NCBI GenBank assembly: GCA_051294905.1
Contig: CM119371.1
Span: forward strand, 4,218,001 to 4,282,000
Reading direction: 5' to 3'
Origin: Botryllus schlosseri
Taxonomy: Eukaryota
Length of the DNA: 64,000 nt
The translations under genes and the position numbers were made by a program. Below the pieces are notes generated by a model. The model saw only the letters and a list, made by a program, of their open reading frames with translations, was not told the origin of the DNA and searched no databases. Each line of letters begins with the position of its first letter. The stretch's first letter is position 1. Below are positions 15,277-63,345 of the stretch, piece after piece.

Positions 15277-16691
15277 ACATAATTTTGTGTTGTTCTGAAA
15301 TTCTTCAATGGCAATCATCCCAATATTATTTTGATTTTAAATGTCGTCATTGTGTCGTAACATCCATCGATTATTAACGATGTTTGATTTTGACTGATCA
15401 CCAGACCTATGAACGAACAGAAAATTTCCCTGATTTGAGTGTAACTGATAAATGTCTATAGTTGTTAGCAGACTTGGACATTGAGATAGTTCTAGAGCAA
15501 AATGCCAGCAATCCGATACTAATCTAATTTTTACAATGTGTCATTACTTTAATTATAATTTAATGTCTTGTTTTCTTGGAAATGCTACAGGTAGGCTATA
15601 GTAGTTCAGTTTAACGTAGTTCTGTTTAATGTAAAACGAGTCAAGCTTGCCGTACAGACATTTGCTATTCTCATGCTTATGAGAATGGACACTGATATGA
15701 AGTGAACTTGATTCAAGTTTTCACGAATTCAGATAATTGTAATCGATTTTGGAAAGAAATGTGTTACTAGAATTCTGATTTTAATCTAGTTTTTGAAAAC
15801 CTGAATATCTATGTGTTCAAGTCTTCCTGTTATCTGTTGAGATATTTTCTGAAAAAGCACAAAGTCTGGCTAGGACACATTTTGTAGAATGCCACTCTTT
15901 CTTACATAGCACATTTGATGACTCCTAATGAACAGTATTTGAAATTAAATTTCCATGTTCGCTAAGAAATGTCCAAGTCTAGGACCAAACCTAAATTGGC
16001 TTTAGTACAGGCGACGTAAAACCTGTGAAGAGTTACTAATTTCGGATTGTGTGCGGACAGGTTTAAGACAAGTTGGATTGTAGAGGGGACAAAATACTGA
16101 TATATCTGCATGCTGAAGCTACATGATATTCTTGACGGAATATTCAAGAGCCTGAAAAGCAGAAGTCGCCCTTATTTGCAGTAAATCTTCATTAACATTT
16201 TTTGTTTCATGTGAAAATCATTTAATAATGGTTCTGTAATTTTGTCGCTGTTGTTTATGCACAGTTGATTTTGCGCACCAGTATTGCATAGTAATACATC
16301 AGTTGTGTAATGTGATGGATTTTGGTCTTTGTGGCTAGGCGAAAATTTGTGGTTTGTCGAATGCTTGCAGATTATTGTATGTGCTCGAAAGGTTATTTAG
16401 AAAAGGTTAAGAACCACTGCTATAAACGTCCCAAATGTTCTATCCGCAGCGAATGTCCAAAAGGGAATCTGAAATGTGATTGTGATCTTGTAAATTGTTA
16501 TATTGTTGTATATTATCACACTGCTCCGTTTTTGCTAATTCCTTCCGTGTTTCAGACTGTGTCATAATATAAGAATTATAATACTATGTAATAACTCATT
16601 CCAAGCTATCATTCAATACTCGTTTTCAAGAAGAGAGCGATTGATGTGTGATGCTTGAAGAAGTAAAGTAATATACAGATAATCCAGAAGA

Positions 16692-17966
16692 ATGACAAGG
16701 AAGGTGTGCTGGATCTGTGGAAAGAGCTTCCATCGTAAGGACGGATTGAAAGCTCACTTGCGATTCCACCTTATATATAGAAATACCGAATGTGAGATCT
16801 GCGGAAAAACTTTTGCTGCCATCAGTTTATTGAAAAAACATTTACTATCCCACACTCTTTTGAAAAATCATGAACGCAAGAGCAATGACAAAGAGTTTAA
16901 TCTCATCGGTCACTTGAAAAGACAAGCGGATACACGTCCTGCTCACCTTGGAGTCAAAAACAAGAACTGTCAGATCTGTGGAAAATCGTTTATGCGGGTT
17001 GGCGAACTGAAAACGCATGGAAATATACATACTGGAAGCAAAAACTATGCATGTGAGATCTGTGGAAAAACGTTTGCACAACTGAATCACTTGAAAACTC
17101 ATGGACATACACATACTGGTGTTAAAAACTATTTATGTCAGATCTGTGGAAAAGCTTTTAATCGGCTTAGTGACTTGAAAAGACATGAGGATACACATAC
17201 TGGAGTCAAAAACTATGAGTGTGAGATCTGTGGAAAAACGTTTGCACAACTGAGTCACTTGGAAACACATGGACATACACATACTGGTGTAAAAAACTAT
17301 TTCTGTCAGATTTGTGGAACAGCTTTTAATCGGCTTGGTGACTTGAAAAGACATGAGGATACACATACTGGAGTCAAAAACTACGAGTGTCAGATCTGCG
17401 GAAAAGCGTTTGTTTATCTCAGTAACTTAAGAACACATGTGAATACACATACCGGAGTCAAATATTATGAGTGTCAGATATGTGGAAAAGCTTTTAATCG
17501 GCTTGGTGACTTGAAAAGACATGAACATACACATACTGGAGTCAAAAACTATGCCTGTCGGATCTGCGGAAAAGCTTTTGGTCGGTTTGGTGTCTTGAAA
17601 ACACATGAAAATACACATAGTGGAGTAAAAAAGTATGCGTGTCAGATCTGCGGAAAAGTGTTTACCCAGCTTGGTAGCTTGAATAGACATGGACATACAC
17701 ATACGGGAGTCAAAAATTATGCATGTCAGACGTGCGGAAAAGCGTTTACTCTGCTTGGTAACTTGAAAAGACATGGGAATACACATACAGGAGTCAAAAA
17801 TTATGCATGTCAGATCTGCGGAAAAGCGTTTACCCGATTTAGTAACTTGAAAACCCATGTGAATGCACATACCGGAGTCAAAAATTATGCATTTCAGATC
17901 TGCGGAAAAGCGTTTACCCCGCTTGGTAACTTGAAAAGGCATGGGAATACACATGCAGTAGAATAG
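16692..17966 (+). CDS. Tandem C2H2 zinc-finger protein, 424 aa (13 canonical + 2 degenerate fingers, no effector domain)
   Basis: Uninterrupted ORF of CxxCGKxFx5LxxHxxxH units with TGVKNY linkers. In-frame stops upstream of the ATG and a candidate acceptor (ttccgtgtttcag, 16555) suggest a single coding exon. Confidence 0.93.
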   Translation: MTRKVCWICGKSFHRKDGLKAHLRFHLIYRNTECEICGKTFAAISLLKKHLLSHTLLKNHERKSNDKEFNLIGHLKRQADTRPAHLGVKNKNCQICGKSFMRVGELKTHGNIHTGSKNYACEICGKTFAQLNHLKTHGHTHTGVKNYLCQICGKAFNRLSDLKRHEDTHTGVKNYECEICGKTFAQLSHLETHGHTHTGVKNYFCQICGTAFNRLGDLKRHEDTHTGVKNYECQICGKAFVYLSNLRTHVNTHTGVKYYECQICGKAFNRLGDLKRHEHTHTGVKNYACRICGKAFGRFGVLKTHENTHSGVKKYACQICGKVFTQLGSLNRHGHTHTGVKNYACQTCGKAFTLLGNLKRHGNTHTGVKNYACQICGKAFTRFSNLKTHVNAHTGVKNYAFQICGKAFTPLGNLKRHGNTHAVE

Positions 17967-38904: not shown

Positions 38905-41600
38905 TTTTATGAGGTTGTATACATAAAACAAATTACCAATGCAAAGTTTAACCTGTTATATGTTTGCAAAGTAAAAGAAATTTTACACACCTTATCGTAA
39001 AGGGAGTGCTATTATCGAATACTTGTATCAGCTTATTGTTTTACATGATAGGTGCCGGTAATACAGAGACGCAGAAACCTGTTGGTGACAAGCCAGAGGC
39101 GACCTATATATACAGTAATGAATCACCGGACTTCTATATGGCAGAACTGGAGGCTCAACTCCAGAAATTGATCGATAGCCTACCAGTCGGACATTGAAAT
39201 CTGCAATGTATATAGGTGCGTATTTATTTTATAACCACTACTTGCCTTAATTCTGAAAACACTTCCTCTTTGAAATGTAGGCTGCTTCTATGAATCAGAG
39301 ATTTCATATATTAAAATCCCAATCTGATAATGGCTTAGGCTCAAATCAATTCAAGAGTGAGGAATATCAAAAATTCTTTGAGCAATGTCAGCTGTAAAAT
39401 GATATTGATGCAAATTTGTTCGATGTGTCGAAATTCAAATCGGTGCTAATCTCAAATTCGAAAAATAATGGTACGAATCATAGCTATTAGGTGCATATCG
39501 AGGTCAATGGATATCAGAAAATAGAGCACACAATATTCCCATTTACAAATTTGACTCAAATACTAAAATAGATGTTGAAATCCATAGCGATAAGGAAAAC
39601 CATATGCATATCGAGTTGAACATATATCATAGATCCAAATGACAACTCTCGCTTGTATGTGACGTTGTAAAAAGATTGTTAGCACTGGCCTGACTGGCTA
39701 TACGTTGAATTTCTGTATCAAAACTGCGTTTGATTCGACAGATAAGGCAGAAGACCCATCAGTCGTACCTATTTTTCACCCCTTATCACAAAGACAGTGG
39801 TATGATCTAATACAGAGGTCTCAAACACGCGGCCCGCGGGCCACATGCGGCCCGCTAGACCATTTTGTGAGGCCCGCGACAGCATTTTGGATTTCGAAGT
39901 ATTCGACAATATTTTACTACCAGTTTTTGAGGACTTAAAATTCGCTCTAAAACTACTCCAGAAGCCTGAAACTACTCATCAAACTTCACTAATACATCAG
40001 TTTCAAAAGTTACCACTGAGTGGAAGATCAACTATTACGTGACATTACTTGTTTAATATGGTAAAACATGACCCGTTGATGATTCGTGACTGAAAATTGT
40101 GATTTGGTCTTGGACGCGACCCTCTGTAGAATTACTCGTACTCGTCACGTCAAACGTTATAATCAGAGAAGGACTTTTGTGACTCGGAATGCCGTGGTTT
40201 GGTACAACCACGCAAATCTCAAGGCTCAGTGAAATTGGTGTACGTCATACTTTCCATTTGGTCGAAGGCTATTTGACGGTAATTTTTGTCCGGCTTGTCC
40301 TGTATTAGCCTAAATTTCATAAAACGAGTATCAATCGAAAGCTACCCCGGTACTGATTGCGCCCACGCTGGAGGCGCTTGATAAGGGCCCAAAACTGATA
40401 TCTTGATGTTCCTTTGTTTCCTGTTTTCTTTTGCCCTTTTATTTAATTGAAAGCCGATATATATATATATACTGATTGCGAAAATATTTATTTATTCTGT
40501 TCGTGGTCCCGGAACTCCCCAAAATAAGCCTCGAGTGTTGCATTGTATGTGACATTGGTAACTAGCACCTTCACCAATAAATCTGATATTCAGAAGATAT
40601 GACATGTAACGAAAGTCGCATTTTCAAAAGTACAGAGCATTTAATTGAACAGATTTACAGCTCTTGTTATGTTTGGATTTGAAATAAACTAGAAAAGCCA
40701 AACCTGCACACTTGTATGCAGGGATGTGTCTTTTACACCACAGTATAAAGTAGCCTTCGACTTTTTATTAGGTCTTATAGATGAAAAACTTACCAATCCA
40801 AAGTTTATCCTGTTATCTGTTTGCAAAGTAAAAGAAATTGTCCACCCCTTGTCGCAAAGGCAAGTGCTATTATCAAATAGTTGTATCAGCTTATTGTTTT
40901 ACATGACAGTTGCCGCGAATACAGAGACACAGAAACCTTTTGGTGACAAGCAAGAGGCGATCTACATAAAGAGTTACAAATCACCAGAAGTGTCAACTCA
41001 AAAAATTGATCGATAAGTCTGCTATATATATGGGTGTGTATCTATTTTCTTTTAACCACTACTTGACTTTATTTTGAATAGACTTCCCCTGTGAAATGTA
41101 AGCTACTTCTACGAATCAGAGCTTTCATATATTAAAATCCTAATCTGGTAATGGCTGAGGCGCAAATCAATTTATGAGTGTCGCGACAACATAAGAATAT
41201 CAAAAATTCTTCAAGCAAATTCAATTTGTAAAATGATATCGATGTATAGTTGACCAATGTGTCGAAATTCAAATTGGTGCTAATCCTAAATTCAAAAAGT
41301 AATGGTACAAATCAAAGCTATTAGGATTTCCATCTATATATATCGAGTTCAACATGTATCAAGGAATGGTGCATAGAATATTCATGTGTACAAATTTGAC
41401 ACAGATCAAAAAGGGTTGTTGAAATCCACAGGGATTAAGAACTCCGTATGCATATCCAGTCAAGCAGATATCATAGATCCAAATTACAACTCTAGCCAGT
41501 ATATGACACGACCAAAAAAATGGTTAGCATTAGCTATATATTGAATTTCTGTAAATCAAAACTGAGTTTGATTCAACAGATGAGGCAGAAGATCTTGCAG
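38905..41600 (+). repeat. Internal tandem duplication of the exon F-G block
   Basis: ~38905-39780 is similar to ~40770-41600, including intron sequence (e.g. TTTCATATATTAAAATCC, TTGATTC(G/A)ACAGAT). Confidence 0.82.
39813..40210. mobile_element. Truncated copy of the 6606-7943 hAT MITE (inverted)
   Basis: Begins CAGAGGTCTCAAACACGCGGCCCGCGGGCC; reverse complement of ~7490-7943. Confidence 0.85.
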
Positions 41601-42502
41601 CCTGTGCATTGGATTGGTGGATGTGACAGATGAAGCTGGATTCGGTAAGGCTATTTTTGTATCGTCACTATCTGTCTATACCGTCTGGATAAAAGGAGCT
41701 CGCTGACAAAAGGAGCTTACAATCTATTTCAATCGCACATCGGTGGTCAAAACAGTCCGCATGACTAATCCAATAGAAGTAGCGCCATAAATTTGCACTC
41801 CATTGCAAGCCAAAGTTGCAATTTCCAGGACATGTCAAAGCTATGTCATGCAGAGATAGAATGTAGTCAAAGTAGTCGGTAATGCTACTCAAGAAAAAAG
41901 TAACATCAATCCAAGTACTACTCAATTACAAGTAAATGTATCGATTCAAAGACAGATCAAGACTCATTCATGTGGAGATAGAAGGTAGACAAAGTAGTCA
42001 GCAATGCTACTTGAATAGAACTATCCTAGTAAATTATTTCTATTTAATTACTGCATGAGCGATTTCAACGACGAGGGAAAATTACTTCTCATAGCATTAA
42101 GGGGTAGTGAATGTAGTTATATTTGCTATGCTAGCACAAGTAGATGTAACACCGTAAATTTCAACCTAATTACAAGTAAAAGAAGCGATTTCTGCTATTG
42201 AATTACTGTGAGATGTTAAATACTTGTCCGCACATCAGACTTGGACAACCAGATAATTCTAGTTGTCTAATTAGACTAATTTAATCAAAAATTTTATATT
42301 GTTCCAGTCAAGTTTTTCAATTATAGTTCGAATCTCATTTCTGGTTTTCCTGAAAATGCTACAGGAAAACTCTAACGTGTGTAACGAACCAAGCTCAATG
42401 TACAGACTACTTCTAATTCATTACGCAAATACTTAACATTTTCTAGCTGTCAAACTCTGGTGGTGGTCATCTTGTACAGACTAATACACGCTAATACTGA
42501 AC

Positions 42503-44577
42503 CAGGGCTGTGGAGTCGGAGTCGGAGTCGGTGGAGTCGGAGTCGGAGTCTGGGTAATTTTCGCTTGATGGAGTCGGAGTCGGAGTCGGAGTCGTGAAAA
42601 CTATAATACCTGGAGTCGGAGTCGGAGTCGGAGTCGGTGGGAAAGTACTGACTGGAGTCGGAGTCGGAGTTTGTGAGAATGACCCTGACTTCGACTCCGA
42701 CTCCGACTCCAACTTCTCTATCATGAAAACATTTGCTTTCAAAGAATTTTCAATATAATTTTTATGTACCACTTATCACTGTTATTAATAACCATACAGA
42801 TCACGTGCGGCAAGCCCATGGCACGCAGGCCAAATTTGGCACACGAGAAGGTTAGGTGTGGCCTGTGAGGTAATTCTCGAAATTATTTAAGACATCAGGT
42901 ACAATTGCAAGGCCAACCAAAATTTGATTAGCATGACCGCGAAATTTGATGATGACTAAAGCAACAGTTCTGACGCATTGACGTATCCAGGGGCCAGCCA
43001 CATTTATCCCAGATCTTCGTATATGACCATAAAGTAGAATGTTTCATAGCTGATTTATTTGACTTGAAATTTTTCTCTGTACTTCGCGTGATTCATTGTC
43101 ACTAGATTTCTTGCATTCATTAGGCCTATTTGAGCCCCCTTCTGAAAATTATAAATACATATTATTTACAGAATTGAGTCTAACTATATTCGCAAAAAGG
43201 AGATACGGCTTCGCTTGTGCACTCGCAGCGAGATCGTCGACAAAACATTTGCACAAAATGATGAAGGCATGTTCACTGATACCGTCGATTTTGCTATGTC
43301 TAAACATCGAATAATTCTGTCCTTGCCAAATGAGCCCAGTGGTATACAAATGCGACCCAATGTATGTTAGCAACATATTTATTGATATAATTCAGACATT
43401 ATATTGCAAAAAATTTCGCGCTTCGCGCGACAAGGGCCTGATTGTGCACTACACAGTTACATGACATATTATCAATTTTAGAGCGTATAACTATTGTTTG
43501 CAATGTTACCTAATTCGGTTTGCTCATATCGGACGACTAAAACAAGGTTATCAACATTCCAGTTGCCCGCGCAATGGTTCGTAAATCTCATGTGTCCCTT
43601 TGGCCGACAAAGTTGCCCACCCCTGATATTGATAAAATTAGACATTACTTACTACATTAATTACAACTCGGTTGCACAGGGGAAGAAAATCGCAAAATGC
43701 GTTTTCGCGATGCAGTCGAAATTGATGCAATTCTTGGAATTATACCATGATACTGTGACAGAGCAAATTCATCGGCTGGTTTTGTAGAATTGTAAAAATG
43801 ATGTAAATATGACTAAACGATGCTTCCCGCTTGACAAAATGAAAAATATTTGTAGTGTAGCTTAGCTGTTTGCGTAGAACAAATGATTAAGAAAGACTGC
43901 AAGTCCCAATCCTTGAATACTTGATTAAGTACGTGTGGACTAGAAATAGGCTATGGTCTTTGACTACTTAACTAAATTCCATTTATGACCAATGTCTATT
44001 AGTAGTTAGAGTGTGTGTGCTTGTAATCAGGATAGTGTGCAATGACAAAATTAGTAAGTTCAATCTCTTTTATTAGTTGCTACCTCATACACAAGAGCTA
44101 CACTTGGATTTTTTATCTACATTTAATCATACATTATTGGATATCTGCCATATTTGAATGATTCATACATTTCAGGATATTAGAGAGTCCACGTTATAAA
44201 AACTTGAAAAGGGAAGGATATTAAGCAAATCTTTCTTTCATGTTAATTGCATAGTGGATAATTCGAGCTGTTCCACAATGAAACAATTTAGCATGCCACC
44301 GTTATTCATATGTTTGAATATGTTTAATGGTTGTATGATAGTCATTCAACCGACAATGTGGCATATCATTTTCGAAGTAAATTGGTAATATTGCTGGAGT
44401 CGGAGTCGGAGTCGGGAGTCGGAGTCGGTACGTTTAAAGACCCAGGAGTCGGAGTCGGAGTCGGAGTCGGTACGTTCGAAGACTCAGGAGTCGGAGTCGG
44501 AGTCGGTATATTGAAAATGTGTGGAGTCGGAGTCGGAGCCGGAGTCGGTGGTAAAATTTACCGACTCCACAGCCCTG
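42503..44577. mobile_element. hAT-type non-autonomous element with (GGAGTC)n subterminal arrays
   Basis: TIRs CAGGGCTGTGGAGTCGG / CCGACTCCACAGCCCTG; perfect TSD TACTGAAC; GGAGTC arrays at 42511-42710 and 44395-44550. Confidence 0.93.
42802..43625. mobile_element. Nested hAT MITE within the GGAGTC element
   Basis: Degenerate left end CACGTGCGGCAAG, right end GTTGCCCACCCCTG; imperfect TSD ATACAGAT/ATATTGAT; internal similarity to 63346-64000. Confidence 0.65.
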
Positions 44578-48044: not shown

Positions 48045-49610
48045 GTTATCCACGTCGTCCAAATATCATATAATCGACCGAAAAGATCATCGCTCCATCA
48101 AATATGCCGGACCTGATGTGTGGAACAGTATCCCGCCGGCCATCCGACATGTCCACATTCAAGTCGAAATACAAGCAATTACTACTAAATAAATACAGTC
48201 CATCCTCAAGATTACCGGACAACGACTGAACTATCGATCTTGCTTCCCGTGACATGCCGCCCTATTGTTTGTCGCTTTCTTTTTCTATACTATCTTCTTG
48301 ACTTTCATTCAGTGTGTATGCCTCCTCTTTACATCGCCTAGGCCAGGGGTTTTCAAAGGGTGGGCCATGGCCCACGGGTGGGCCACAGGAGCATTTGAGG
48401 TGGGCCACAAAGCTATTTAGAAAATTTTAGAATTTATGTAAGTTTAGTTATATTTGTAATGTTGATCGCTAAAAATATATTCATGTAAAGCTTTTCATCC
48501 GACTCTGATGAGACGTGTTGGCACGTATGGAGTCAGCATGTACAAGTCCAAACCGGTGCTAACAGCAACTAAAATAATTTCGAGTATATAATAACTGGAA
48601 GGTAAAATGCTGAAGTAACCAAGCATTCCGGCAGGGGCTGGGGCATATGTCGTATGCCGTTGAAAGGGGTGTGCACTGTGCAATAAACTCGGAATGAAAC
48701 GTAATTGATGTATAGATTTACTGTAGGCTGCTTAGGCATGCCGTGTTATTGTAAGATAAAATAGCCCTAATTGCAAATTATTAGCACCGAAACGAATCGT
48801 AACGGATTGAGGAGTTAACGAAGTGCATTTATATGGAGTCGGTTTAAAATGTCCGCCCTGATATCATTGTACATAATCTAAGAGCCACGTGAATTGATTG
48901 TATCATTGGATTGAATATTCTGGCATCGCAACTTCAATTGGTTTGGCACAAGATGTGTTATTGCATGCATATTTAAAAAATCTTTCTCCACTTCTCTGTA
49001 GTACCCCATTCACCCATGAATTGTTTGAAGCTGACCCAGAATGATTACATTACTCCCAACAATAGTGGAACTAAAATCTCAATCACACGGCGGATGCGTG
49101 GATTTGATGTTTGTGTTTCGCGATGTGAATGGAGCAGCGGACGATCATAATATACACAGGAGTTTCAGCCTATGATCTACCAAGGCCGTGGGCCTAACTG
49201 CTGCACCCAAACCCCCGATTGTGGGACCTCGAAAGGGCCCAAGATTTGGAAATTTCCGCTTCGCGCGATCGAAAGGTCCGAAAGGTCTACATTTAAATAT
49301 CATCAGTAAATTGAGAGACAAATGCGCATATTTTGAAGGAATAGACATATCGGCGCAGTCGATTACCACGCATTGAACAGGATTATGACTCCAAGATGAG
49401 AGGTGGGCCACAGCACATTTTTAAACCGGAAAATGGGCCACGGTCAAGAAAGGGCTGAGAACCCCTGGCCTAGGCCAAGGTGGGTGTCAGATTCCATAGA
49501 ATACTCCTGGTCGCTTCGACATCTTCCTGTCTTTTCTTTGTATCGCATTTTTTGTGGTGTATTGAACTGATAAAATTGCTAATAAACCAATGATGATGAT
49601 GATGATGATG
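48045..49610 (+). mobile_element. 5'-truncated LINE (CR1/L2 group) 3' end, interrupted by a hAT MITE
   Basis: RSIKYAGPDVWNSIPPAIR/STFKSKYKQLLLNKY (~48091-48198) is the typical ORF2 C-terminal GxxxWNxLP..FK motif; ends in AATAAA followed by a (TGA)n tail at ~49582-49610. Confidence 0.75.
48344..49467. mobile_element. hAT (Charlie/Buster-type) MITE
   Basis: TIRs CAGGGGTTTTCAAA / CTGAGAACCCCTG; GTGGGCCA subterminal motifs; perfect TSD GCCTAGGC. Confidence 0.9.
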
Positions 49611-49748: not shown

Positions 49749-51135
49749 TCAAAATACAAAGTGTGTCAAGTAAGTAGTGTTGCTGTAAAATACATGTGTG
49801 GCGAGATGCCGCAATATCTTTTCATGATGTTTTAAGTTACCAAGATGGGTAATAAACGCTTTTCCGCAGATCTGACATGCATAGTTTTTGACTTCAGTAT
49901 GTGTATTTCCATGTCTTTTCAAGTCACCAGGTAGGGTAAACGCTTTTCCGCAAATCTGACATGCATAGTTTTTGACTCCAGTATGTGTATTCTCATGCGT
50001 TTTCAAGTCACGAAGCCGGGTAAACGCTTTCCGCATATCTGGCATGCATAGTTTCTGACTCCAGTATGTGTATTTTAATGTTGTCTTAAGTTACCAAGAT
50101 GGGTGAACGCTTTTCCGCAGATCTGTCATGCATAGTTTTTGACTTCAGTATGTGTATTTCCATGTCTCTTCAAGTTACCAGGCAGGGTAAACGCTTTTCC
50201 GCAAATCTGACATGCATAGTTTTTGACTCCAGTATGTGTATTTATATGGCTTTTTAAGTCACCAAGCCGGGCAAAAACTTTTCCGCAGATCTGACATGCA
50301 TAGTTTTTGACTCCATTATGTGTATTTCCATGTTCTTTCAAGGTACGAAGCTTGGTAAACGCTTTTCCGCACCCTGACATGCATAGTCTTTGACTCCGCT
50401 ATGTGTATTTTCATGTCTTTTCAAGTCACGAAGCTGGGCAAACGCTTTTCCGCAGATCTGACATGCATAGTTTTTGACTCCAGTATGTGTATTTTCATGT
50501 TGTCTTAAGTTACCGAGACAGGTAAACGCTTTTCCGCAGATATGACATGCATAGTTTTTGACTCCAGTATGTGTATTTCCATGTTCTTTCAAGGTATGAA
50601 GCTGGGTAAACGCTTTTCCACAGACCTGACATGCATAGTCTTTGACTCCAGTATGTGTATTTCCATGTATTTTTAAGTCACCAAGCCGGGCAAAAACTTT
50701 TCCGCAGATCTGACATGCATAGTTTTTGACTCCAGTATGTGTATTTCCATGTCTTTTCAAGTTACCAGGCAGGGTAAACGCTTTTCCGCAAATCTGACAT
50801 GCATAGTTTTTGACTCCAGTATGTGTATTTCCATGTTCGTTCAAGGTACCAAGCTGGGTAAACGCTTTTCCGCAGATCTGACATGCATAGTTTTTGACTC
50901 CAATATGTGTATTTCCATGTCTTTTCAAGTTACCAGGCAGGGTAAACGCTTTTCCGCAAATCTGACATGCATAGTTTTTGACTCCAATATGTGTATTTCC
51001 ATGTCTTTTCAAGTTACCAGGCTGGGTAAACGCTTTTCCGCAGATCTGACATGCATAGTTTTTGACTCCAATATGTGTATTTCCATGTCTTTTCAAGTTA
51101 CCAGGCAGGGTAAACGCTTTTCCGCACCCTGACAT
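49749..51135 (-). pseudogene. Disabled 3' continuation of the zinc-finger array (about 16 more fingers)
   Basis: Same 84-bp units continue beyond -1 frameshifts at ~51126 and ~50371, a Cys-to-TGA change at 50126, a TAA at ~50076 and a further frameshift at ~50028. Confidence 0.88.
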
Positions 51136-53015
51136 GCATAGTCTTTGACTCCGCTATGTGTATTTTCATGTCTTTTCAAGTCACGAAGCTGGGCAAACGC
51201 TTTTCCGCAGATCTGACATGCATAGTTTTTGACTCCAGTATGTGTATTTTCATGTTGTCTTAAGTTACCGAGACAGGTAAACGCTTTTCCGCAGATATGA
51301 CATGCATAGTTTTTGACTCCAGTATGTGTATTTCCATGTTCTTTCAAGGTATGAAGCTGGGTAAACGCTTTTCCACAGACCTGACATGCATAGTCTTTGA
51401 CTCCAGTATGTGTATTTCCATGTATTTTTAAGTCACCAAGCCGGGCAAAAACTTTTCCGCAGATCTGACATGCATAGTTTTTGACTCCAGTATGTGTATT
51501 TCCATGTCTTTTCAAGTTACCAGGCAGGGTAAACGCTTTTCCGCAAATCTGACATGCATAGTTTTTGACTCCAGTATGTGTATTTCCATGTTCGTTCAAG
51601 GTACCAAGCTGGGTAAACGCTTTTCCGCAGATCTGACATGCATAGTTTTTGACTCCAATATGTGTATTTCCATGTCTTTTCAAGTTACCAGGCAGGGTAA
51701 ACGCTTTTCCGCAAATCTGACATGCATAGTTTTTGACTCCAGTATGTGTATTTCCATGTTCGTTCAAGGTACCAAGCTGGGTAAACGCTTTTCCGCAGAT
51801 CTGACATGCATAGTTTTTGACTCCAGTATGTGTATTTCCATGTTCTTTCAAGGTACGAAGCTGGGTAAACGCTTTTCCGCAGACCTGACATGCATAGTCT
51901 TTGACTCCGGTATGTGTATTTTCGTGTCTTTTCAAGTCAGGAAGCCGGGCAAACGCTTTTCCGCAAATCTGACATGCATAGTTTTTGACTCCAGTATGTG
52001 TATTTCCATGTTCGTTCAAGGTACCAAGCTGGGTAAACGCTTTTCCGCAGATCTGACATGCATAGTTTTTGACTCCAGTATGTGTATTTCCATGTTCTTT
52101 CAAGGTACGAAGCTGGGTAAACGCTTTTCCGCAGACCTGACATGCATAGTCTTTGATTCCGGTATGTGTATTTTCGTGTCTTTTCAAGTCAGGAAGCCGG
52201 GCAAACGCTTTTCCGCAGATCTGACATGCATAGTTTTTGACTCCAATATGTGTATTTTCATGTCTTTTCAAGTTACCAGGCAGGGTAAACGCTTTTCCGC
52301 AAATCTGACATGCATAGTTTTTGACTCCCGTATGAGTATTTACATGTTCTTTCAAATTACCAAGCTTGGTAAACGCTTTTCCACAGACCTGACATGCATA
52401 GTTTTTGACTGCAGTATGTGTATTTCCATGTTCGTTCAAGGTACCAAGCTGGGTAAACGCTTTTCCGCAGACCTGACATGCATAGGTTTTGACTCCGGTA
52501 TGTGTATTTTCATGTCTTTTCAAGTCACAAAGCTGGGTAAACGCTTTTCCGCATATCTGACATGCAAAGTTTTTGACTCCAATATGTGTATTTATATGCT
52601 GTTTTAAGCTACGAAGATGGATAAACGCTTTTCCACAGATCTGACACTCATAGTTTTTGACTCCAGTATGTGTATTTTCATGTGTTTTCAAGTGTCCGAT
52701 CCGAGCAAACACTTTTCCGCAGATCTGACATGCACAGCCTCCGGTATGTATATTTCCATGCGTTTTCAGGCCGCCAATCCGCACAAACGATTTTCCACAG
52801 ATCTCACAGTCGTGTTTTTTTACTCCAAGGTGAGCAGTACGTGTATCCGCATGTCTTTTCAAGTGCTTTTTCAATAAACTGATTGCAGCAAAGGTTTTTC
52901 CGCAGATCTCACATTCGGTATTTCTATCTATAAGGTGGAATCGCAAGTGAGCTTTCAATCCGACCTTACGATGGAAGCGCTTTCCACAGGTCCGACAGGA
53001 CACCTTCCTTGTCAT
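51093..53015 (-). CDS. Tandem C2H2 zinc-finger protein, 640 aa, 22 fingers; paralogue of 16692-17966, truncated by a frameshift in finger 23
   Basis: Long ORF of CQ(I/V)CGKAFx5LxxHxNTH-TGVKNYA units; N-terminus and ~240 bp of upstream sequence are shared with the + strand ZF gene. Confidence 0.9.
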   Translation of the reverse strand: MTRKVSCRTCGKRFHRKVGLKAHLRFHLIDRNTECEICGKTFAAISLLKKHLKRHADTRTAHLGVKKHDCEICGKSFVRIGGLKTHGNIHTGGCACQICGKVFARIGHLKTHENTHTGVKNYECQICGKAFIHLRSLKQHINTHIGVKNFACQICGKAFTQLCDLKRHENTHTGVKTYACQVCGKAFTQLGTLNEHGNTHTAVKNYACQVCGKAFTKLGNLKEHVNTHTGVKNYACQICGKAFTLPGNLKRHENTHIGVKNYACQICGKAFARLPDLKRHENTHTGIKDYACQVCGKAFTQLRTLKEHGNTHTGVKNYACQICGKAFTQLGTLNEHGNTHTGVKNYACQICGKAFARLPDLKRHENTHTGVKDYACQVCGKAFTQLRTLKEHGNTHTGVKNYACQICGKAFTQLGTLNEHGNTHTGVKNYACQICGKAFTLPGNLKRHGNTHIGVKNYACQICGKAFTQLGTLNEHGNTHTGVKNYACQICGKAFTLPGNLKRHGNTHTGVKNYACQICGKVFARLGDLKIHGNTHTGVKDYACQVCGKAFTQLHTLKEHGNTHTGVKNYACHICGKAFTCLGNLRQHENTHTGVKNYACQICGKAFAQLRDLKRHENTHSGVKDYACQGAEKRLPCLVT

Positions 53016-55266
53016 TCTTCTGGATTATCTGTATATTAATTTACTTCTTCAAGCATCACACATCAACCGCTCTCTTCTTGAAAACGAGTACTGAACGATA
53101 GCTTGGAATGAGCTATTATATAGAATTATAATTCTTATATTATGACACATTGGAAATACAGAAGGAATTAGCAAAAACGGAGCAGAGTGATAAACAACAA
53201 TATACAAGATCACAATTACATTTCATATTCCGTTTTCGAGATTGGCTGCGGATAGACATGTTACATGTCACTAAAGATTGGTCTGAATTAAGTTATGGTC
53301 AATTATATTTAAATCCTTTAAAAATTTTTGAGGAAGTATCTAAATCCTTTAAAACTTTTGAGGGGGTATTTAAATCTGATTAGAACGTTGTTACGTGGTG
53401 TCAAAATACCACGATAATATCGTCCATTTCTTTTCATTATCTTAGGCAAATCGAATATCATACTCGGTATTCGAGTAATGCGGACAAGGCGATATAAACC
53501 GCATTCCCCCTTGGATCTCGATGGAATTTGATACGAATAATGTAATGACACTACCATTGTTGCGTCTCGTTTAGGTGAAAAGAGTCCGATGTGATATAGG
53601 TACAGGTATCTTGAATCCAGCTACCCCTATGTGGATAGTTGCGATTTCAGTTTTGGAGGTGGTGGATCCTATATGCGTCCGGTGTGGCCGGAAAGAATTC
53701 ATAGGCTATATCAAACCTAGTATAGGACATTGCATTGGGCGATCATGGTTGTGATTACTCACATCGTCTGGGAGCCAATTATTCAGGATCTTGTCCAGTT
53801 TGGCGAACAAGATACCGTAGATTTTATGTCGGGAAAAGTTATGACCAACTAATCAGTGACCAGGAAAGTCGGCAAAGACGTTCCTATTCATGCACGGTAC
53901 CCGAATGCTGATCGGCGATGCGTGCTAGGAAATCGCTATATAATTTTCAAAATTCGCTAATATTATAGCTAGTCGCTGGATTGCTAGTTTTTATCGCTAA
54001 ACCAAATGAAAAATCGCTAGATTTGCCGACAAAATCGCTTAATTCGCAACCACTGGTTACCAACTGCCAGACTTATTTCTTTCACCTAAGGTATAAATCA
54101 CCCGACATCTTCAAAAACATGATGTTACATGCGTCACTATCTGTCAATAACGCTGAAGAAGCACCGATCTTCTAATAACCACCGCACATTCTTAATACCT
54201 CCGGAAGCCAAAATATATATTATTAGTATAAATGTCCGCGCTGCAGCCAACATCACGTGAAAATAAATATCGCGAATCCTCAAATTCTCACAAATTATTC
54301 TAGAGATCTGCCAGAATATTTGCGAACTGAACACATCACATCGCTTTGTTATATTCGATCCTGCTCGGGCGGCAATTCATTACCGCGAAGAGTGAAGTCT
54401 GCCTACAATCAGTCATAATATATGAACAACCTGCCGCCACGCCGTTCTGAAAACTGTTCTGTTCAACTATAAATATAGTATCAATGCAAGTAATAGCGTT
54501 CTTAGTCTGGAATGTTACGCCCTGGGCGCTCGATATAGCCATCGGCTACGCTATGTTATGATCGCTGTAGACATTAAAACGAGGCAAACTTCACCACCCG
54601 GAAAAGCGGTCTACCGTGAGAGAGAGAGAGTCTTTATTGAAAAAGCTTAGCTCATGTTTAGAAGGTAAAATCACTACATTTGATTTGTATGTCCGAGTAT
54701 GACAAATTAAACTGGCTCATGGTTGTTTGAGAACAAGTGTGACGCCGAAAGTCGTTGTGTTCATTGCTATCTTTTTTATTATTACACCTCTTAGCATATC
54801 ATCCTTTCTCGCAAACTGTTTTGTAGATTTACATTATTATTTGGCCGATAAATGTAGTTTTGTTATGCAACCAATCGCAAACATTAATGTTGCCTCTGTT
54901 TAATTACTGATACGGTGTTGGTCAGGGTTACCATACGTCCGGAATTTCACTGAGAAAAATGCGTATGGGTGGAAATTCTAAAATATGCCTAAATGTCCGT
55001 AATTTAGAAGGCTTGAAGTAGGCTCAAAAGTTTTTCGTAAATCAACAAACAATATTATTTTCAAGCTGATTTAGGCTATTCGAGATTTGTCTTCGCGCCG
55101 CGCGCTAGTTAGTGCAACTTATATTTTAATAACTATGGCGACCATGCAGGCACCGCCCTCGTAAAAAATGCAGTCAAAAATAAATATAAATACCATCATT
55201 TGATGAAATAAATCTAATTGTAATCGCAAATATGAGCTAGCGGTATATTCCTAGAGTTGGTTAAGG

Positions 55267-55448
55267 TAGGCTTAGGTTACCATATTTTGGAAATCTAAAA
55301 AGAGGACACTTATTCAGAAATCTGACCTAAATTTTCAAAAGAGGACAAAATCTCAAAAAAGAGGACAAAAGGGCGTCCTCCGAGGACACTTTCCAAAAAG
55401 TCAAAAAAGAGGACAAATCCTCTTAAAAGAGGACGTATGGTAAGCCTA
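55267..55448. mobile_element. Short hAT-type MITE with AGAGGAC repeats
   Basis: Termini TAGGCTTA..CCATA / TATGGTAAGCCTA; near-perfect TSD GGTTAAGG/GGTTAACG; a related left end CAGGGTTACCATACGTCC lies at 54923. Confidence 0.7.
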
Positions 55449-56528
55449 GGTTAACGCCGATTGATGTTTCCAATCACAGACAGTGGTTCCAGATCTTGGG
55501 GTCATTTGCCTTTATCTGTGGGTCACGAAGATATTGGACGTCACCAGCTTTCAAAATAGGCCGTGAGTAAGTCTGGGGAAGCTGAAATTTTTTAGTAATC
55601 ATCTTATCAAGTTTTGAGCTGTATCACATTTTCAAGTTGGAGATGAGGTCGCGACCATAATAACGGTTGAAAATCACAGGATGTGCAACCTGCTGGTGCA
55701 TTTTATAAGAGACTAATATATGGAAGAATCAAGCCAAATGCATATGGTAAGTGAACAGCAAGTTACATCGACTACCCTATGGTGGGCCCAAGTTCCGTGC
55801 TTTTTTGGGCGGGAGGGGCCAGAAAAATTGTTGTTTCGGACCTGATTAAAACACACAAACAGATAGCCGCACCGACCTAGTAGTACTGCATAGGGCTGTC
55901 AAACACAATCCTGACAGGCCAGACACGGCCCGACGGATGATTTCATTTGGCCCATGGATGAATCTATTGCAGACCCAGCAATTAAGTAGCAACCACCAGA
56001 GCTCACAATACAGATGGCCCAATTCATGGCATGTTCCACTCCATTCATGTATAGTGTATACCAGACCTGGGCAAAGTGCGGCCCGCGAATGGTTGCTTGG
56101 AATTCACAACAGAAAACTTGCTTTAGGAATGAATAAAACCATGGAATATGTATCAACTGATCGGGAAATTCGTTAAATTTAAAGCCTGTTCAATGTTCAT
56201 TAATATGCCACGATGACGCTGCCTACGTACCACGCATGCGTAATCCATATTCAAAATAAAGGCAAATTGGCAAAGTATGAGTAGCAATTAAAGTCACAAG
56301 AAATCACTCTTTCCATATAGTTTACTTCACACCTTCTTTGTTGCCATTGCCACATTAGGCGTTATACGGCGTTTGTTTCAAATTACGGGATACGCTTCTA
56401 AGTCCCTCATTCATAAAACAAGTCAGTCAGTGCTCGCGATTACTATTTGACGCATCCTATCTATCACCCATAAAGAATTACAGGCAAGCTAAAAAAGCCG
56501 AAAAATGAAATTAAATGAAGGTTTAGAC

Positions 56529-57350
56529 CGGGGGTCGGCAAAACCCGGCACGAGCCCCATTTGTGGCTCGCGAGAAAATTTTTCATGGCACGCCAAATGA
56601 TTTGATGCACACATATTATAACCATGTTTGTTACAAAATATGTAACCGGGGTCTACGACACTTAAGTACTTGAAATACAATAATCGCTGCATGTTGGCCA
56701 AATCGTTCGACATTGATATGTCCACTGTCCAAGTGCCGAAATGACCGGCGCTGAATAGTACAAATGAAACCCGCAGAGGAAAATCGAGTCCCGCGTCGAA
56801 ATGCGAATTTGGAATCGTGATCGTCTTACTAAAGGATGTACCTCTTAGTTCCGTCTGATACATGTAATCGAATCCAATATAGCTGGAGCAACGACAACCT
56901 TTACCACTTTAACGCGATCTTTGGAGCTTTGCAGACAAATCGAGTGTCATGCCAGCATGATTGTGACATTGTATGCTACGGGGGTGAGTCCATTATAATT
57001 ACCAGGCCATAACATCGAAACATCCTTGATGGGCCTGTCACCGAACACAGTGGACTTAGAAACAACCACAGCAACCACAAGAGATCGATAATTAGCTGAA
57101 TAAAATTAAATGATATAAACTTACGTACATTATGTGATAGGTCTAGTGCAGTAGCGATCAAAATTCATACCCTTCGCGACCAATAATGTAAGTAATACTG
57201 GCGTGACCGATGCCGTCACCAACTGCAGATAAGCGGTTGGTGGGATTCATTGCGTGGAACGCTAAATATGTCTAAAAATGATTGGGACGCCCGTGGGTAC
57301 TATTTTAAGATATTTTGACATTTTGACACGCTGCATCCGAAAGGTTGTGG
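56529..57350. mobile_element. Degenerate hAT MITE
   Basis: Left end CGGGGGTCGGCAAA..GGCACGAG; eroded right end GACACGCTGCATCCGAAAGGTTG; related fragment at ~57762-57860. Confidence 0.5.
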
Positions 57351-58368
57351 TGTACGTACGTAGATGAAATTGCGTAACAAGCTTTCTGGATTTTTATTAA
57401 AATTCGGCTACAATCAACTTTACGGGGAACTACGACATGCATTTCAACGCACATAGGCCTACATAAGCAACTGAGGTACGAACAGAATGAACAAAGCGAA
57501 GTTAACTATTTGCAGTAGTTTGCGCCTAGAAACCATTCACACCAAGCGTCTTGATAGATCGCCACACAACGGAAATAACGTACTTTCCTATTGAATCGTA
57601 CCATACCAATTATTTGGTATAAAATACGCTGTGACGCGGCATTCCAGGCAATATATGTAGCGGTTGCGTGATTCGTGACTGTGCGCAATTACATGCCGCA
57701 TATTCACTACAGCAAATAGTGCTAAGCAATACGTTTGGAATTACAGACCTACGAATCACCCTAGGGGTCGGCAGCCCCCGGCACGCGAGATGATCTTCCA
57801 TGGGATGCCAAATGATTTGACGTACACGACATATCATAACCCTGTTTGTTAAAAAACGTGTAGAAAATGCTTTTAAAGCGGAAATCATACACAAAGTCAA
57901 TACGTCATACAGCTCATGAAATGTTAGTTTCGCGCGGCAGAAGTATGACTGGACACGAGTTTATCCAGCATGGTCCTGGCGTACCATAGTCGATGGCCCA
58001 GGTTACAGCTACAGCCGCATTTGTCGATCAGGCTCAGCTTGTAGATTGTGAAGTTTCGTTGCTGGTCGATATAAGTCATTCAATCCATCAGCAGACTCAA
58101 AATGTCGTGGTTCTGTATGATGGAAAATACATTAAACCACATGAGCAAGTGTTTACAGTAGTCAGTGATGATACTCAAGTAGAAGGAACCTAGAATATTC
58201 TTAATCTTTTACAAGTAGAAGCACGATATGCTCAAAGTAGTCAGGGCAATAGTAAGGCTGGGAATAATGATTCGAGGACTCTAATCTGACGCGAGTAATA
58301 ATTCTAATAAATTAGTCGTCAGAGAGGATTTTTCGACTTCTGACATTATAACATTCTTGCCACTAAGA

Positions 58369-58845
58369 CAGAATTCTCAAACATGCGGCCCGTGACAATA
58401 TTCTCTACCTTTCTTTAAATTTGAGAACCTAAAATTCGCTCTAAAATTACTCCAGGAGTCAGAAACTACCAAACAAACTTCACTATTAGATCCCTTTCAA
58501 AAGTTACGACGAAGTGGAAGATTACCTATTATGATGGTTACACATGACCCGTTGTTGATTCGTACTGGAAATCGTGATTTGGACTTGGGCCGGCCTTTTT
58601 TAGAATTATTCGAACTCGGACTCAATAGGTGATAAAATAAAAATGATTCGAGTTGAGTCGCGTCGAAAGATACAGTCGGAGGAAGACTTTTGCGACGCGG
58701 AACGCCGTGACTTGGTAAAACCACTGACGCAACAAACTATCAAACTGGTATGGAAAATAGTAAAATATCAGAAGGCTGTAGCTTACGTGTCGTACCTTAT
58801 TTAGATATCAAAGCAGGTTTGTATGGAAACCATTGGCATTATGTT
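58369..58845. mobile_element. Old partial copy of the 6606-7943 hAT MITE family
   Basis: CAGAATTCTCAAACATGCGGCCCG start; similar to 39813-40210 and to the reverse complement of ~7360-7943. Confidence 0.7.
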
Positions 58846-59104
58846 GCAGCTGCAGCTGCAATATTCCACTAGAATTACAAGTACACGATTTTTCCAAATC
58901 GCACCAGATTATAAATATAATTATAGATACATTTGTTCCAAATTCAACTAGAATTAGAATTATAGCCAAGTTTTTTCCAAATTCGATTAGAATTAGAATT
59001 GAAAATGCATTTTCGTTTCAACTTTGATTAGAACTAGAATTATAGCCGTATTTTTCATAACTGGAATTATACAAGTGCATTTTTTCGAAATTAGGCTAGA
59101 AGTA

Positions 59105-59460
59105 GATTTATAGCTACGTACAGTATTTTCAAATAAGGTTAAAATAAGACTTATGACAACAGATTCTTTTTTCAAATTAGGTTAGAATTAGAATTATAAC
59201 AACACAATATTTCCAAGTTCGATTTATAGCTACAGTATTTCCAAATCAGCTTAAAATAAGAATTATGACTACACATTTTTTTCCAAAATAGGTTAGAATT
59301 AGAATAATAACTACACAATTTTTCCAAGTTAGATTTATACCAACAGTATTTCCAAATTAGCTTAAAATAAGAATTATGACTACACAGTTTTTTTCCAAAT
59401 TATGTTAGGATTAGAATTATAACTACATAACTTTCTCCAAGTTAGATTTATAGTTACATC
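59105..59460. repeat. ~111-bp tandem repeat (about 3 units) in a TTAGAA-rich tract
   Basis: Units containing CAAATTAGGTTAGAATTAGAATTATAAC..CCAAGTTAGATTTATAG recur at ~59171, 59282 and 59394. Confidence 0.75.
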
Positions 59461-62400
59461 GTTTTTTTTTCAAATTAGATTAGAATGAGAACGGCTGAAT
59501 TTGGAATTTGAATCAATTCCGACCTGGAATGAATTATAAAAAAATCTATCTCAGTTCATATCAAATATGAGTAAATTCTCATAATAGTCTATTCTCCGAG
59601 ACTGTCAAATATCAGTGGACCAAGTTTGGCTGGTCTCACATCATACAGTTCTTCTGCAGCATTTTCATGAAAACCACAAATTCGATTACAGTTAACATGA
59701 GGGCATAGAAACATTTCACAAATTAGAGAAAAGCTATAATTATGACGTTGAAACATTTCATTGTAAGATTATATTACTGGCATTTTGCTACAATTAATCT
59801 AATTACACGATTAGAATTATCTAATGCTGGAGCGTGTAGAGTAGAAGAAATTTGTTACTCTATTTTGTTGATTTAGGTGTCTCCTTGACATAATCTACAT
59901 TTTGAAACTTTTCTTTTCCAATTGAAGTAGTTTCGATAAGTCATAGACGTTCTAACTGTCATTGAGTATCAATTTACGGTATTACTTCTACTTTTGCAGC
60001 GTTGCCGACTACTTTGACCCCCTCCTACTTACACGTGAAGCAGTTTTGACCGTTGTTGAAATTGCTACTTCTGCTTGTAATTGAGTATAAACAGATGGCA
60101 TTATTTCGACTTGATATCACCAACTACTTTTACACATCCTAATTCAACTTGACACTACTGAGTAATGTTCAGGTCTTTCATTTTCTACTTTTATATTTGA
60201 AGTAGCTTTGATACGACTTGGAAATTACTTCAATTGTAACGACGCTGACTCGTTAACCTATTCTGATTTCAATTACCATAACGTAGCTAGCCAAACGCCA
60301 GTAGTGTAGGGGGTAGCAGTAGTCAAGTTTGTAACATCACTCACATTTCAAATGTAATCACGATATATCAACCAGCCATCATCCAATCCCCACAGATGTA
60401 TGTGAGGCAAGGTCACTTTCTTGGTTAGCATACTCGGGTATTGTTGGAGTATGTAGTGAGGTTATACCATGTCTCTGTCATTGTTCGTCGTTACCGTAGA
60501 GAAGTTGTTGAAAAGTACACCGTTGCTGTTGTCACGTGCTTGGAAGCCTGGAATTTATTGCATGTCAAAAATTTGCAGACATTTGAAGGTCTTCTATAGT
60601 AAGGACAGTATTGAAATCGGATTTGAATCAATGAACATTTTGCAGATATTTGAAGGCCTGCTTTACGCAGGACAATCTTGAAATAGTTGCATACATTCTT
60701 TAAGCAGCGAAATACCAAGTCGTATTACGTAACACATAACCATATATTGTAATATGGAAGTATCAGTGACACATTTCCTGGTTTTTGGTTTGTATATACC
60801 ATTAGCGTGTAGCAGTTTGTACGAGATGAGCTGCAGTGGCAGACTAGAAAATTTTCAGCTAATCCAGATTAGATTCGAATTAGGATGATAGCTGATTATT
60901 TTCAAATTAGATCAGAATCAGACTGACTGAATTCATGAGAACTTTACAACAGAATAAAATTCCGATCTACAAAAGAATGCAAATGTCTGTACAGCAAGCT
61001 CGAGCTAGCCTCGTTACACACAATACAGTTCTGTGTAGTGTTTTCAAGAAAACTAGAAATTATGTTAGAAATAGGGGGATTGCAATATTTCCGAAATATT
61101 TCGAATTAAATCACCGACCTTTCGATGAAATGAGTCTAATAGACAACTAGAATGATCATTAAATTTTTTGCAATTGAGTTGATATTTACGGCGCTACTTG
61201 TACTTCTATCTTTGAGTAGTCACGCAGACTACCGTATTCACTTGTGCATTTATGGAATTAGATAGTAAGCTCGTATCAATATTGTATAAATCCAGTCGCA
61301 GTGACGATACCAAGATTTCCTTACCAAATCCTGCTTTATCCGTCAGATCCACCCACTTGCCAATCCAAAGCACCGGTACAGAATCTGGCTCTTCTGCGTC
61401 ATCTATTGAATTAAAAGGAGTTGTAATACAAAGAAATGTAACATGTAGCCAGTGCTAACAATCTTTTTGGTAACGTCGCAGACTAGAAAGTGTCGTAACT
61501 TGGACCTATGATATTTGCCATTCTCAATATGGATATGGAATTCATAATCACTTTATCATACATGAAAATTTAAGGCACGCGAGTATTAGAGTATCGCTTA
61601 GTGACATGGAAAGGCCAATCACATACATTTTATGCAACTACAAACTATACAATTCCATTTCCACCTCACATAACAGATGATTTGTTTTTTTCAACCATAC
61701 CTATATCATTGCACTTTGTGACATAATAACTGCATAGTGCAAAACTAGCCAAGCTCGGTGTACAGCTATTTGCCATTCTCATGCTAGCGAAAAAGATGTC
61801 GGATTTGATATGATTTCAACTTGACTCAATTTCTGAGTAATTTTAAGCTAGAATTCTAGACGTAATCTGAATAAAAGCTGCGAATTTTCCAAATTTCAAT
61901 ATCCCAATATCGGTCAGGCTCAAACCACAACCTTGTAGTTAGGTTATAAAAAGCTAACTGTTGAAAGTTGGCTTCAATCGAGCTCTGTGGTGGTGATAGG
62001 CAAACAGGTGGTCGGTAGTTGTTGAGGTATGTAGCCTCGTGAAATGTGGGTTGACACAACTTGCTTTGTGGTAGGTCATTGAGATGGATCGATAGTTAAC
62101 ATGCTGTGGACAAAATCATGTTGGGTCAGTGTATGGTGCGTGTCACTACCAAAGAGTCACCAATCATTACAGATTTTGACTCGAGTCAAGTTGAGTCACT
62201 TAATTTTTGAATGTGACTTGAGTCAAATCAAGTCACTAACATCGAGTCTCAAGTCATATCGAGTCTTACAGGTCTTCGAGTCAAGTCAATGTCGTCGAAT
62301 TTGGGAAAGTGAGTAAATTAAATTCGAGCCATTAGATTTTTTCGGTTTTACTCTAGTCAAGTCAATCGACTCACTCGTCAGATCGAGCTATTACACATTT

Positions 62401-63345
62401 TGACTTGAATCGAGCCAAGTAAACTTACGACTCGGGGTTACTCAATATATGAAGTAACTCGATTCAAGTCACTCGATTTTTAAACATGACTCAATTCCAG
62501 TCACATCAGTCAAAATCAAGCGACTCAAAATTTTTAAGGTGGCTCTCGAGTGAATGTGAAAGCTGTGAAAATCAAGTCACTCGAAATTAGAAGTGACTCA
62601 AAACAATTCAAGTCACTTGAACAGTTGACACTACTTCCACAAGTTGTTACGATAAAGATTACTTCTATGTGATAGTTATCAGTCACTAGAAAAAACTATG
62701 CATAGAGAAGGCCTACATATTTTTCTACTTACTTGGAGACCACTACTTGTATTTGTAGGGTACACGAGTAAAAATTTACGACTCAACTTCTTCTTGAGTA
62801 CCAACGTTAACTATTGTGACCACCTTCTAGTTTGATTCGAGACACGACTCCAGCCATCCCAACACTGCAGTACATACAGGAATATATGAAAAAAAAATTC
62901 AAATCGGAGTCTCAGATATAACATACCCTTTTATAAGATCGCAAGTTGCAGATGATACATTATGCGGAGAAATGTATTCATTTCTTCTCCATTTTCAAGA
63001 AGGTTTGCTGCAACGTCTCACCTTTAAACGGTCGCTGGTTGGCCAACAATCGTTACCTACAATAAATAAAATAATGTATCAAGTATGTATCAAAACTGAA
63101 TCAAGTATTCATTCTAATGATTTGATGTGACTGGTGTAGTGAGAGATGGATTTTTCCAGTCCTGAAATTATGCGATCCTTGCCACGAAGAGTAAATTGAT
63201 CAATCAGAATTATATTTCTGATATTATTTAACACTATTATTGTACAGCAATAGATTCTCCAGCTTCTAATACAAATTTTACATTTAGTTACAAACGTTTA
63301 CTTGTACTTGTGTTCGAGAGTTCACGCTGGCTACTTTGACTAGAT

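Follow-up and report, generated by a model that had tools for sequence, protein, structure and literature searches.

What does a long array of repeated zinc-finger units encode, and does the variation among the units reflect a changing DNA target? The window analyzed here, 64,000 nucleotides of Botryllus schlosseri DNA, contains such a locus. The original prediction described a ~38-finger C2H2 array of near-identical 84-bp units, rapidly re-targeted in an arms race, possibly with MITEs nearby. Two overlapping features define the locus.

49749..52997, minus strand: the whole C2H2 repeat array, 38 units of ~84 bp, 22 in frame and 16 out of frame (TRF and unit anchoring)
51093..53015, minus strand: open reading frame P0001, 640 amino acids, made up of 6 residues, 22 C2H2 fingers (52997-51156) and a 20-residue end (translation, Pfam)

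When anchored on the second cysteine, the 38 units span 52988-49868 of the minus strand. The 37 spacings between them are mostly 84 bp (32 cases), with three of 83 bp and one each of 105 and 78 bp, and TRF reported a period of 84, 34.6 copies and 86% matches. The predicted number and period of the units were therefore correct, but the 38 units do not make one gene product. The reading frame starts with an ATG at 53015, stays open over 1923 bases and stops at 51093 following a 1-base loss, so that the coding part consists of 22 fingers.

Only 6 residues lie ahead of the first cysteine of P0001, and its C-terminal end includes 12 frameshifted residues. Pfam recognized 22 PF00096 stretches, 18 of which form a single regular run, whereas the first four fingers are irregularly spaced. 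The zinc ligands are complete in all 22 fingers. P0001 has the series of at least three C-x2-C-x12-H-x3-H fingers at 28-residue spacing by which tandem poly-zinc-finger proteins are recognized. The C2H2 fold is not in doubt, and the finger geometry is, by sequence, the same as that of ZFP568 and PRDM9 in their DNA-bound PDB structures. The linker in the array is HTGVKN instead of the usual HTGEKP. The gene is a member of a clustered poly-zinc-finger family, and its finger exon evolves as a coding minisatellite. We consider it somewhat probable that this member of a lineage-specific cluster encodes a DNA-binding protein consisting of fingers alone, in which selection maintains the backbone, recombination between units reshuffles the specificity and the array was recently trimmed to 22 fingers.

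A second gene of the same family is found in the window in the opposite orientation, 35 kb away, and shares a stretch of upstream DNA with the first.

16692..17966, plus strand: inverted paralogue P0002, 424 amino acids, 14 finger units, with the same start and an intact frame (translation, unit anchoring)
53016..53256, minus strand: non-coding stretch 5' of the P0001 ATG, common to the paralogue (alignment)
16439..16691, plus strand: the paralogue's copy of the common upstream stretch (alignment)

The final finger of P0002 lacks its first cysteine. The common upstream stretch (~250 bases) differs at 7.5% of positions between the two genes, and the homology stops sharply at 53256. No collinear DNA was found between the paralogues beyond this stretch or on the 3' side. 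The sharp homology end would suit a mobile or retrocopied unit, but the genes have no common 3' flank, and neither a poly(A) tail nor a target-site duplication could be seen by eye.

The family appears to extend beyond these two genes. In DNA run X1, the summed contig depth, which is not a copy number, was ~13 over unique DNA, 575 over the 5' flank, 1487 over fingers 1-2 and 7228-9995 further in, values that suggest tens of genes in the family. Four protein comparisons returned generic C2H2 arrays, with a best identity of 46% among the 120 of 298 matches listed, 47% among 64 of 64 matches, 47% among the 120 of 923 matches listed and 49% among the 150 of 157529 matches listed. All clusters in an Atlas search were likewise generic C2H2. 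Only 1 of 434 fetched proteins, the two in the window excluded, reaches two HxGVK[ND] linkers. Given the nearby paralogue, the raised DNA depth and the lack of a close relative among the listed matches, these are lineage-specific clustered paralogues.

All seven recognition-helix strings originally quoted (QLGTLNE, LPGNLKR, RLPDLKR, QLRTLKE, RLGDLKI, CLGNLRQ and QLRDLKR) are present in the array. Diversity was computed over 18 of the 22 fingers (5-22), with the irregularly spaced first four excluded. It is not evenly spread across the unit: the contact positions -1, +2, +3 and +6 account for 0.428 of the amino-acid diversity, where an even spread would give 0.143, and they rank first of 10626 four-position subsets. 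The differences are thus concentrated where the original prediction placed them, although other positions hold more than half of the diversity, with variation also at -2, +1, +5, +8 and in the linker. Of 354 other fetched arrays with at least 4 tandem fingers, 353 had a lower contact share, and the median was 0.273 in the 128 with at least 8 fingers; these arrays were chosen by similarity from many species and do not constitute a within-species null. The share in the paralogue P0002 is 0.289. To call the units near-identical was an overstatement, since fingers 5-22 have a mean pairwise identity of 0.877, and of their 153 pairs 39 (25%) exceed 90% and 4 are identical.

The units resemble one another more than they resemble the paralogue. 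All 21 distinct gap-free units tested (units 4-37 minus 23, 32, 36 and exact duplicates, with 1-3 and 38 excluded) have their nearest neighbor within the P0001 gene, and they fall into about five types. The backbone distance is 0.062 within the gene versus 0.125 to the paralogue, and the four-gamete test fails in 20 of 66 informative column pairs. After the gene duplication (~8% divergence from the paralogue), about five finger types supplied the units from which unequal crossover and gene conversion rebuilt the array. The predicted concerted evolution with helix-centered variation is thus borne out by the in-gene nearest neighbors, the contact share and the four-gamete failures.

Unit exchange copies whole blocks and creates hybrid helices. 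Self-comparison and unit alignment resolved the following features.

51699..52217, minus strand: in-frame block repeat, units 10-12 and 13-15 (self-comparison)
51109..51741, minus strand: 633-bp exact repeat, copy 1, units 16-22 and the frameshifted junction (self-comparison)
50354..50986, minus strand: 633-bp exact repeat, copy 2, units 25-31 and the junction, entirely out of frame (self-comparison)
51122..51139, minus strand: junction of units 22 and 23, with the 1-base loss that ends the reading frame (unit alignment)
49749..51092, minus strand: dead tail, units 23-38 (unit alignment)

Both reshuffled blocks noted at the outset were confirmed. Units 10-12 recur as 13-15 at an offset of 252, with 206 bp exact and 267 bp with one mismatch. 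Units 16-22 recur as 25-31 at an offset of 755, exact over 633 bp, with units 23-24 between the copies; unit 24 is a hybrid without a counterpart elsewhere. Because the frameshift was copied inside the exact repeat, the second duplication occurred later than the frameshift, and no coding finger was gained by it. The largest reshuffle therefore sits in the dead tail, where turnover cannot reflect selection on binding. The contact positions of the tail hold 0.39 of its diversity (12 gap-free units), nearly the share found in the coding part. Because the signature outlives the reading frame, it is not sufficient evidence of selection acting today.

With the 1-base loss, only 22 fingers remained coding; the units that follow are decaying but continue to be duplicated. 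The lesion of the 22/23 junction recurs at the 31/32 junction, within 50384-50367. In unit 35, a TGA replaces the first cysteine (~50128) and a TAA occurs at +8 (~50077); unit 36 has lost 1 base (50041-50016), and unit 38 has a 3-base insertion (49859-49844). None of the five independent lesions precedes unit 22 of the ~29 ancestral units (p ~0.002-0.003, post hoc). Could the frameshift and the 755-base duplication be assembly errors, the true allele being one long open array? The two blocks are identical across 633 bases, and read placement covered 52390-58800, outside both blocks. Units 23-24 nevertheless separate the copies, and a unique hybrid such as unit 24 is not expected from a plain false duplication. 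The lesion that ends the frame is not a simple homopolymer change, and the tail carries four further, different lesions. A contig from X1, possibly the source sample, matches 1506 upstream bases with no differing letter and one gap. We regard an assembly error as highly improbable.

The rates of change were compared between the backbone and the contact codons. In a minimal-change (parsimony) count, the backbone omega was 0.28 (p=0.0014), and the backbone is under purifying selection. For contact codons, the pairwise pN was 0.446 against an overall pS of 0.164, a ratio of 2.7 from pairs that are not independent. The parsimony count gave an omega of 1.9 (15 nonsynonymous and 4 synonymous changes, p=0.058). 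Since the 15:4 ratio matches the neutral site ratio of 9.3:2.7, relaxed constraint accounts for it equally well, and positive selection is only suggested. The proposed dN/dS check thus supported a conserved backbone but returned a nonsignificant excess at the contacts. Of the proposed rapid re-targeting in an arms race, the turnover of units is supported, but positive selection at the contact codons is not established, and the largest reshuffle lies in the dead tail.

These data also bear on whether the gene is still alive. One alternative is that the gene has recently died within a cluster rich in duplications, that its helix diversity is a legacy of the finger types of a functional ancestor and that its blocks were copied by neutral mutation of the minisatellite. 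A young pseudogene of this kind would explain why the biggest duplication carries the frameshift and lies outside the frame, and why the contact share of the dead tail is nearly that of the coding part. It would also fit the comparison of fingers 1-3 with the paralogue, which revealed 17 amino-acid-changing and 6 silent codons and differences at 8.9% of bases, near the neutral ratio and near the 7.5% of the non-coding flank. The paralogue carries related helix types too, and its best acceptor-like site, 145 bases 5' of the ATG, lacks its AG in the P0001 gene. Pseudogene debris is found all around, the window being strewn with broken, decayed Polo-kinase pieces. On the other hand, every lesion lies behind 1923 open bases in which the zinc ligands of 22 fingers are complete. 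The three indels that separate the first 97 aligned codons from the paralogue (3, 72 and 6 bases) are all multiples of three, and the 72-base loss keeps both histidines of finger 2. The backbone omega also argues against neutrality, although it may be an old signal. On balance, a pseudogene is possible but unlikely.

A finger-only product raises the question of how the gene begins. Two stops in the finger frame lie near the P0001 ATG, one of them 12 bases before it in both paralogues. Fusion to the adjoining Polo-kinase pieces is ruled out, as the pieces are broken and in-frame stops precede the ATG. The common upstream stretch starts at an acceptor-like CAG, and two weak CAG sites are located 23 and 14 bases 5' of the ATG; 53016-53256 is a candidate 5' UTR, intron end or outron. 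In Ciona troponin I, a leader is trans-spliced near the ATG, according to the excerpted text of PMC3074122. If the DNA is ascidian, trans-splicing near the ATG could, by analogy, remove upstream ATGs. Downstream on the sense strand, no AATAAA occurs before 46626, which counts against a working gene; an ATTAAA is found at 50079.

Pfam detected no effector domain inside the P0001 frame, in line with the reported absence of KRAB, SET or ZAD. KRAB, SET, SSXRD, ZAD, SCAN and BTB had no Pfam match in 81 sense-strand stretches of at least 32 amino acids in 53016-64000 (11 kb), nor in 54 stretches of at least 34 amino acids upstream of the paralogue (9000-16690). The four weak Pfam matches listed upstream of both genes were all unrelated. 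With six residues before the first cysteine, a stop 12 bases before the ATG and no Pfam effector in these stretches, P0001 lacks the in-frame N-terminal effector that characterizes KRAB-ZF, ZAD-ZF, SCAN-ZF and BTB-ZF proteins. Emerson and Thomas (2009; PMC2604467, as excerpted) warn that missing N-terminal domains are often small exons that were not found. The frame could accordingly be the last exon of a longer gene, in which small upstream exons encode an effector outside Pfam and are spliced to it at the CAG 14 bases 5' of the ATG; this junction would be in frame (phase 2), and the CAG is present in both paralogues. However, pyrimidines fill only 7-8 of 18 bases at this site, an AG 9 bases upstream competes with it, no RNA joint was seen over 52390-58800 (low power), the 81 and 54 upstream open stretches yielded no effector match, and the upstream DNA of the paralogues is not collinear past 250 bases. 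A hidden exon is very unlikely.

RNA coverage was assessed over 52390-58800 only, in 4 of 24 listed runs, with raw RNA runs sampled in part. In RNA run X24 (~6 in 100 reads sampled), the depth was 0 on 53032-53245, 0.36 on 52818-53031 and at most 4.6 on 52604-52817. Most of its placed reads (761 of 773) fit only partly, and 9 of 13 show another letter at 52677; the finger reads of X24 are probably derived from relatives. RNA run X21 had no reads on the fingers. The 5' end had no full-fit RNA coverage in the two partly sampled RNA runs, where dips in depth count neither way. Run X12 follows DNA depth and was set aside. A run search with the locus returned no RNA run among the holders listed.

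How does the gene compare with known systems? One mechanistic parallel to be weighed is PRDM9, of which the array could be the finger exon, or a fragment, from an orthologue that positions recombination hotspots. As in PRDM9, the array is an 84-bp coding minisatellite with intragenic duplication and conversion, the hallmarks named in the excerpted text of Oliver et al. (2009; PMC2779102), and its diversity is centered on -1/+2/+3/+6. The contact share, 0.43, lies at the low end of the range of 0.33-1.0 given for complete PRDM9 genes (human, 0.687; mouse, 0.910) in Table 1 of Baker et al. (2017; PMC5519329); two salmonid values, 0.49 and 0.55, are given in the excerpted text of Raynaud et al. 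(2025; PMC11703093). Several features differ. PR/SET, KRAB and SSXRD have no match in the frame or in the upstream stretches of at least 32 amino acids in the window, the gene has many paralogues, 16 of 38 units are out of frame, and positive selection is not significant. All finger pairs of mouse Prdm9 are >90% identical, compared to 39 of 153 here, and tunicate Prdm9 displayed no concerted evolution (both from Oliver et al., as excerpted). The P0001 gene fails on domains and unit identity and is not PRDM9, although its array mutates in a PRDM9-like manner; an orthologue or fragment is exceedingly improbable.

Clustered poly-zinc-finger genes offer a better match. In mouse KZFP clusters, blocks of 2-7 fingers are repeated inside genes or pseudogenes, and decay is found 3' of premature stops (Kauzlaric et al., 2017; PMC5363842, as excerpted). 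The mouse KZFP/rGU clusters and MMSAT4 share with our locus paralogues clustered on both strands, finger-block repeats within genes and decay behind a premature stop. Selection at -1/+3/+6 in lineage-specific zinc-finger expansions, and genes in which no N-terminal domain was found, are described in the excerpted texts of PMC2604467 and PMC10547256; variation in P0001 is likewise centered on -1/+3/+6. Unlike the mouse KZFP/rGU genes, P0001 has no KRAB that we could find, carries the HTGVKN linker and is more strongly homogenized within the gene than 353 of 354 fetched arrays. Lineage-specific tandem arrays with variable base-contacting residues also make up FiNZ-ZNF and other metazoan ZNF expansions (Wells et al., 2023; PMC10547256, as excerpted), but no N-terminal accessory domain was found for P0001, and the motif scan of the window predicted no target above chance. 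The zf-C2H2 family is the most variable in size among tunicates (72-310 genes) according to a Styela clava transcription-factor survey, in the excerpt of which in-gene concerted evolution falls outside the treatment (PMC8122590). We found no literature, mostly among sources outside subscription journals, on within-gene concerted evolution in non-PRDM9 tunicate finger arrays. Given that none was reported in tunicate Prdm9, the strength of in-gene homogenization in a non-PRDM9 array is somewhat unusual.

How might a finger-only protein of a lineage-specific cluster work? The 640-amino-acid product would be made now, or would have been until recently. It would bind the DNA major groove via -1, +2, +3 and +6, as in solved C2H2-DNA complexes, and selection would hold the zinc-binding backbone while the contact residues would be free or favored to change. 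Each rearrangement of the array would then alter the bound sequence. Such an effector-less protein would most likely work by site occupancy or through a partner protein and, by analogy with the KRAB-ZF and FiNZ-ZF families, may repress repeats or lineage-specific regulatory DNA. A binding motif was predicted from a recognition code, and the window itself was scanned with the arrays masked. Of 14 five-finger motifs, one outscored every one of 20 shuffles, and no predicted target in the window exceeded chance (low power). The scan thus gave no support to the suggested link to nearby MITEs, and an arms race with local MITEs is unsupported.

A bolder version of the finger-only reading would make this a sea-squirt zinc-finger-only family with independently acquired PRDM9-style turnover and no effector, respecified from generation to generation, in which frameshifts set the number of fingers, the tail serves as a donor pool for conversion into the coding part, and transposons or satellites impose diversifying selection. 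We hold this to be quite unlikely.

Block reshuffling by itself is no evidence of an arms race. As it stands, the locus is a strong yet familiar case of the birth, reshuffling and decay of a poly-zinc-finger gene. Should the gene prove live and polymorphic, it would provide a test, in an invertebrate chordate, of PRDM9-like turnover in zinc-finger families of the ordinary kind, with the dead tail as a built-in neutral control that separates mutation from selection in finger turnover.

The paralogue, the inverted finger gene at 16692-17966 (+), carries 72 additional bases past finger 2 (16839-16910, +), at a point that corresponds to 52865 (-) in the target array. This extra segment is a decayed finger; in the target, which has lost these 72 bases, two half helices are fused and a complete finger remains. 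The strand opposite the target also has two stop-free frames, 391 and 151 codons long (50677-52607, +), which arise merely from the repetition of the finger codons.

Mobile-element-like repeats were found near the array:

48344-49467: non-autonomous element, ~1.1 kb long and ending in terminal inverted repeats, located 280 bases past the end of the array
54958-55600: nested, very high-copy MITE-like repeats

The first is bounded by a perfect 8-base duplication (48336-48343 and 49468-49475) and is presumably hAT-like, judging by the 8-base rule. The MITE-like repeats reached a summed DNA depth of ~300,000, as opposed to 13 on unique DNA, and were the chief source of RNA reads within 52390-58800. 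At 42510-42670 and 44396-44549, GGAGTC hexamers form arrays in which higher-order units of 42 bases recur; these are probably the ends of a repeat element.

The forward strand of the window also contains at least six broken copies of an exon that we take, by resemblance, to come from a Polo-like kinase. Those listed here are all interrupted by stops and frameshifts, and two of the copies gave partial Pkinase matches in Pfam:

2208-2472, +: copy 1
8207-8525, +: copy 2
22386-22700, +: copy 3
29434-29763, +: copy 4
32890-33200, +: copy 5
35970-36325, +: copy 6

Self-comparison of the window revealed a duplication containing kinase debris:

22133-25295 and 29196-32234, +: direct duplication, ~3.1 kb, 83-84% identity

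A further piece appears to resemble the beginning of the first polo box, and had no hit in a Pfam search:

61300-61552, -: exon-like piece followed by a GT donor

Self-BLAST placed two more copies of this piece near 39586-39758 and 41430-41669 (+).

Upstream of the target, family homology and elevated DNA depth both stop abruptly at 53246-53256, ~240 bases 5' of the ATG, and the 1.4 kb beyond this edge is single-copy. Candidate readings of the edge are a rearrangement, insertion of the gene unit, or an exon boundary.
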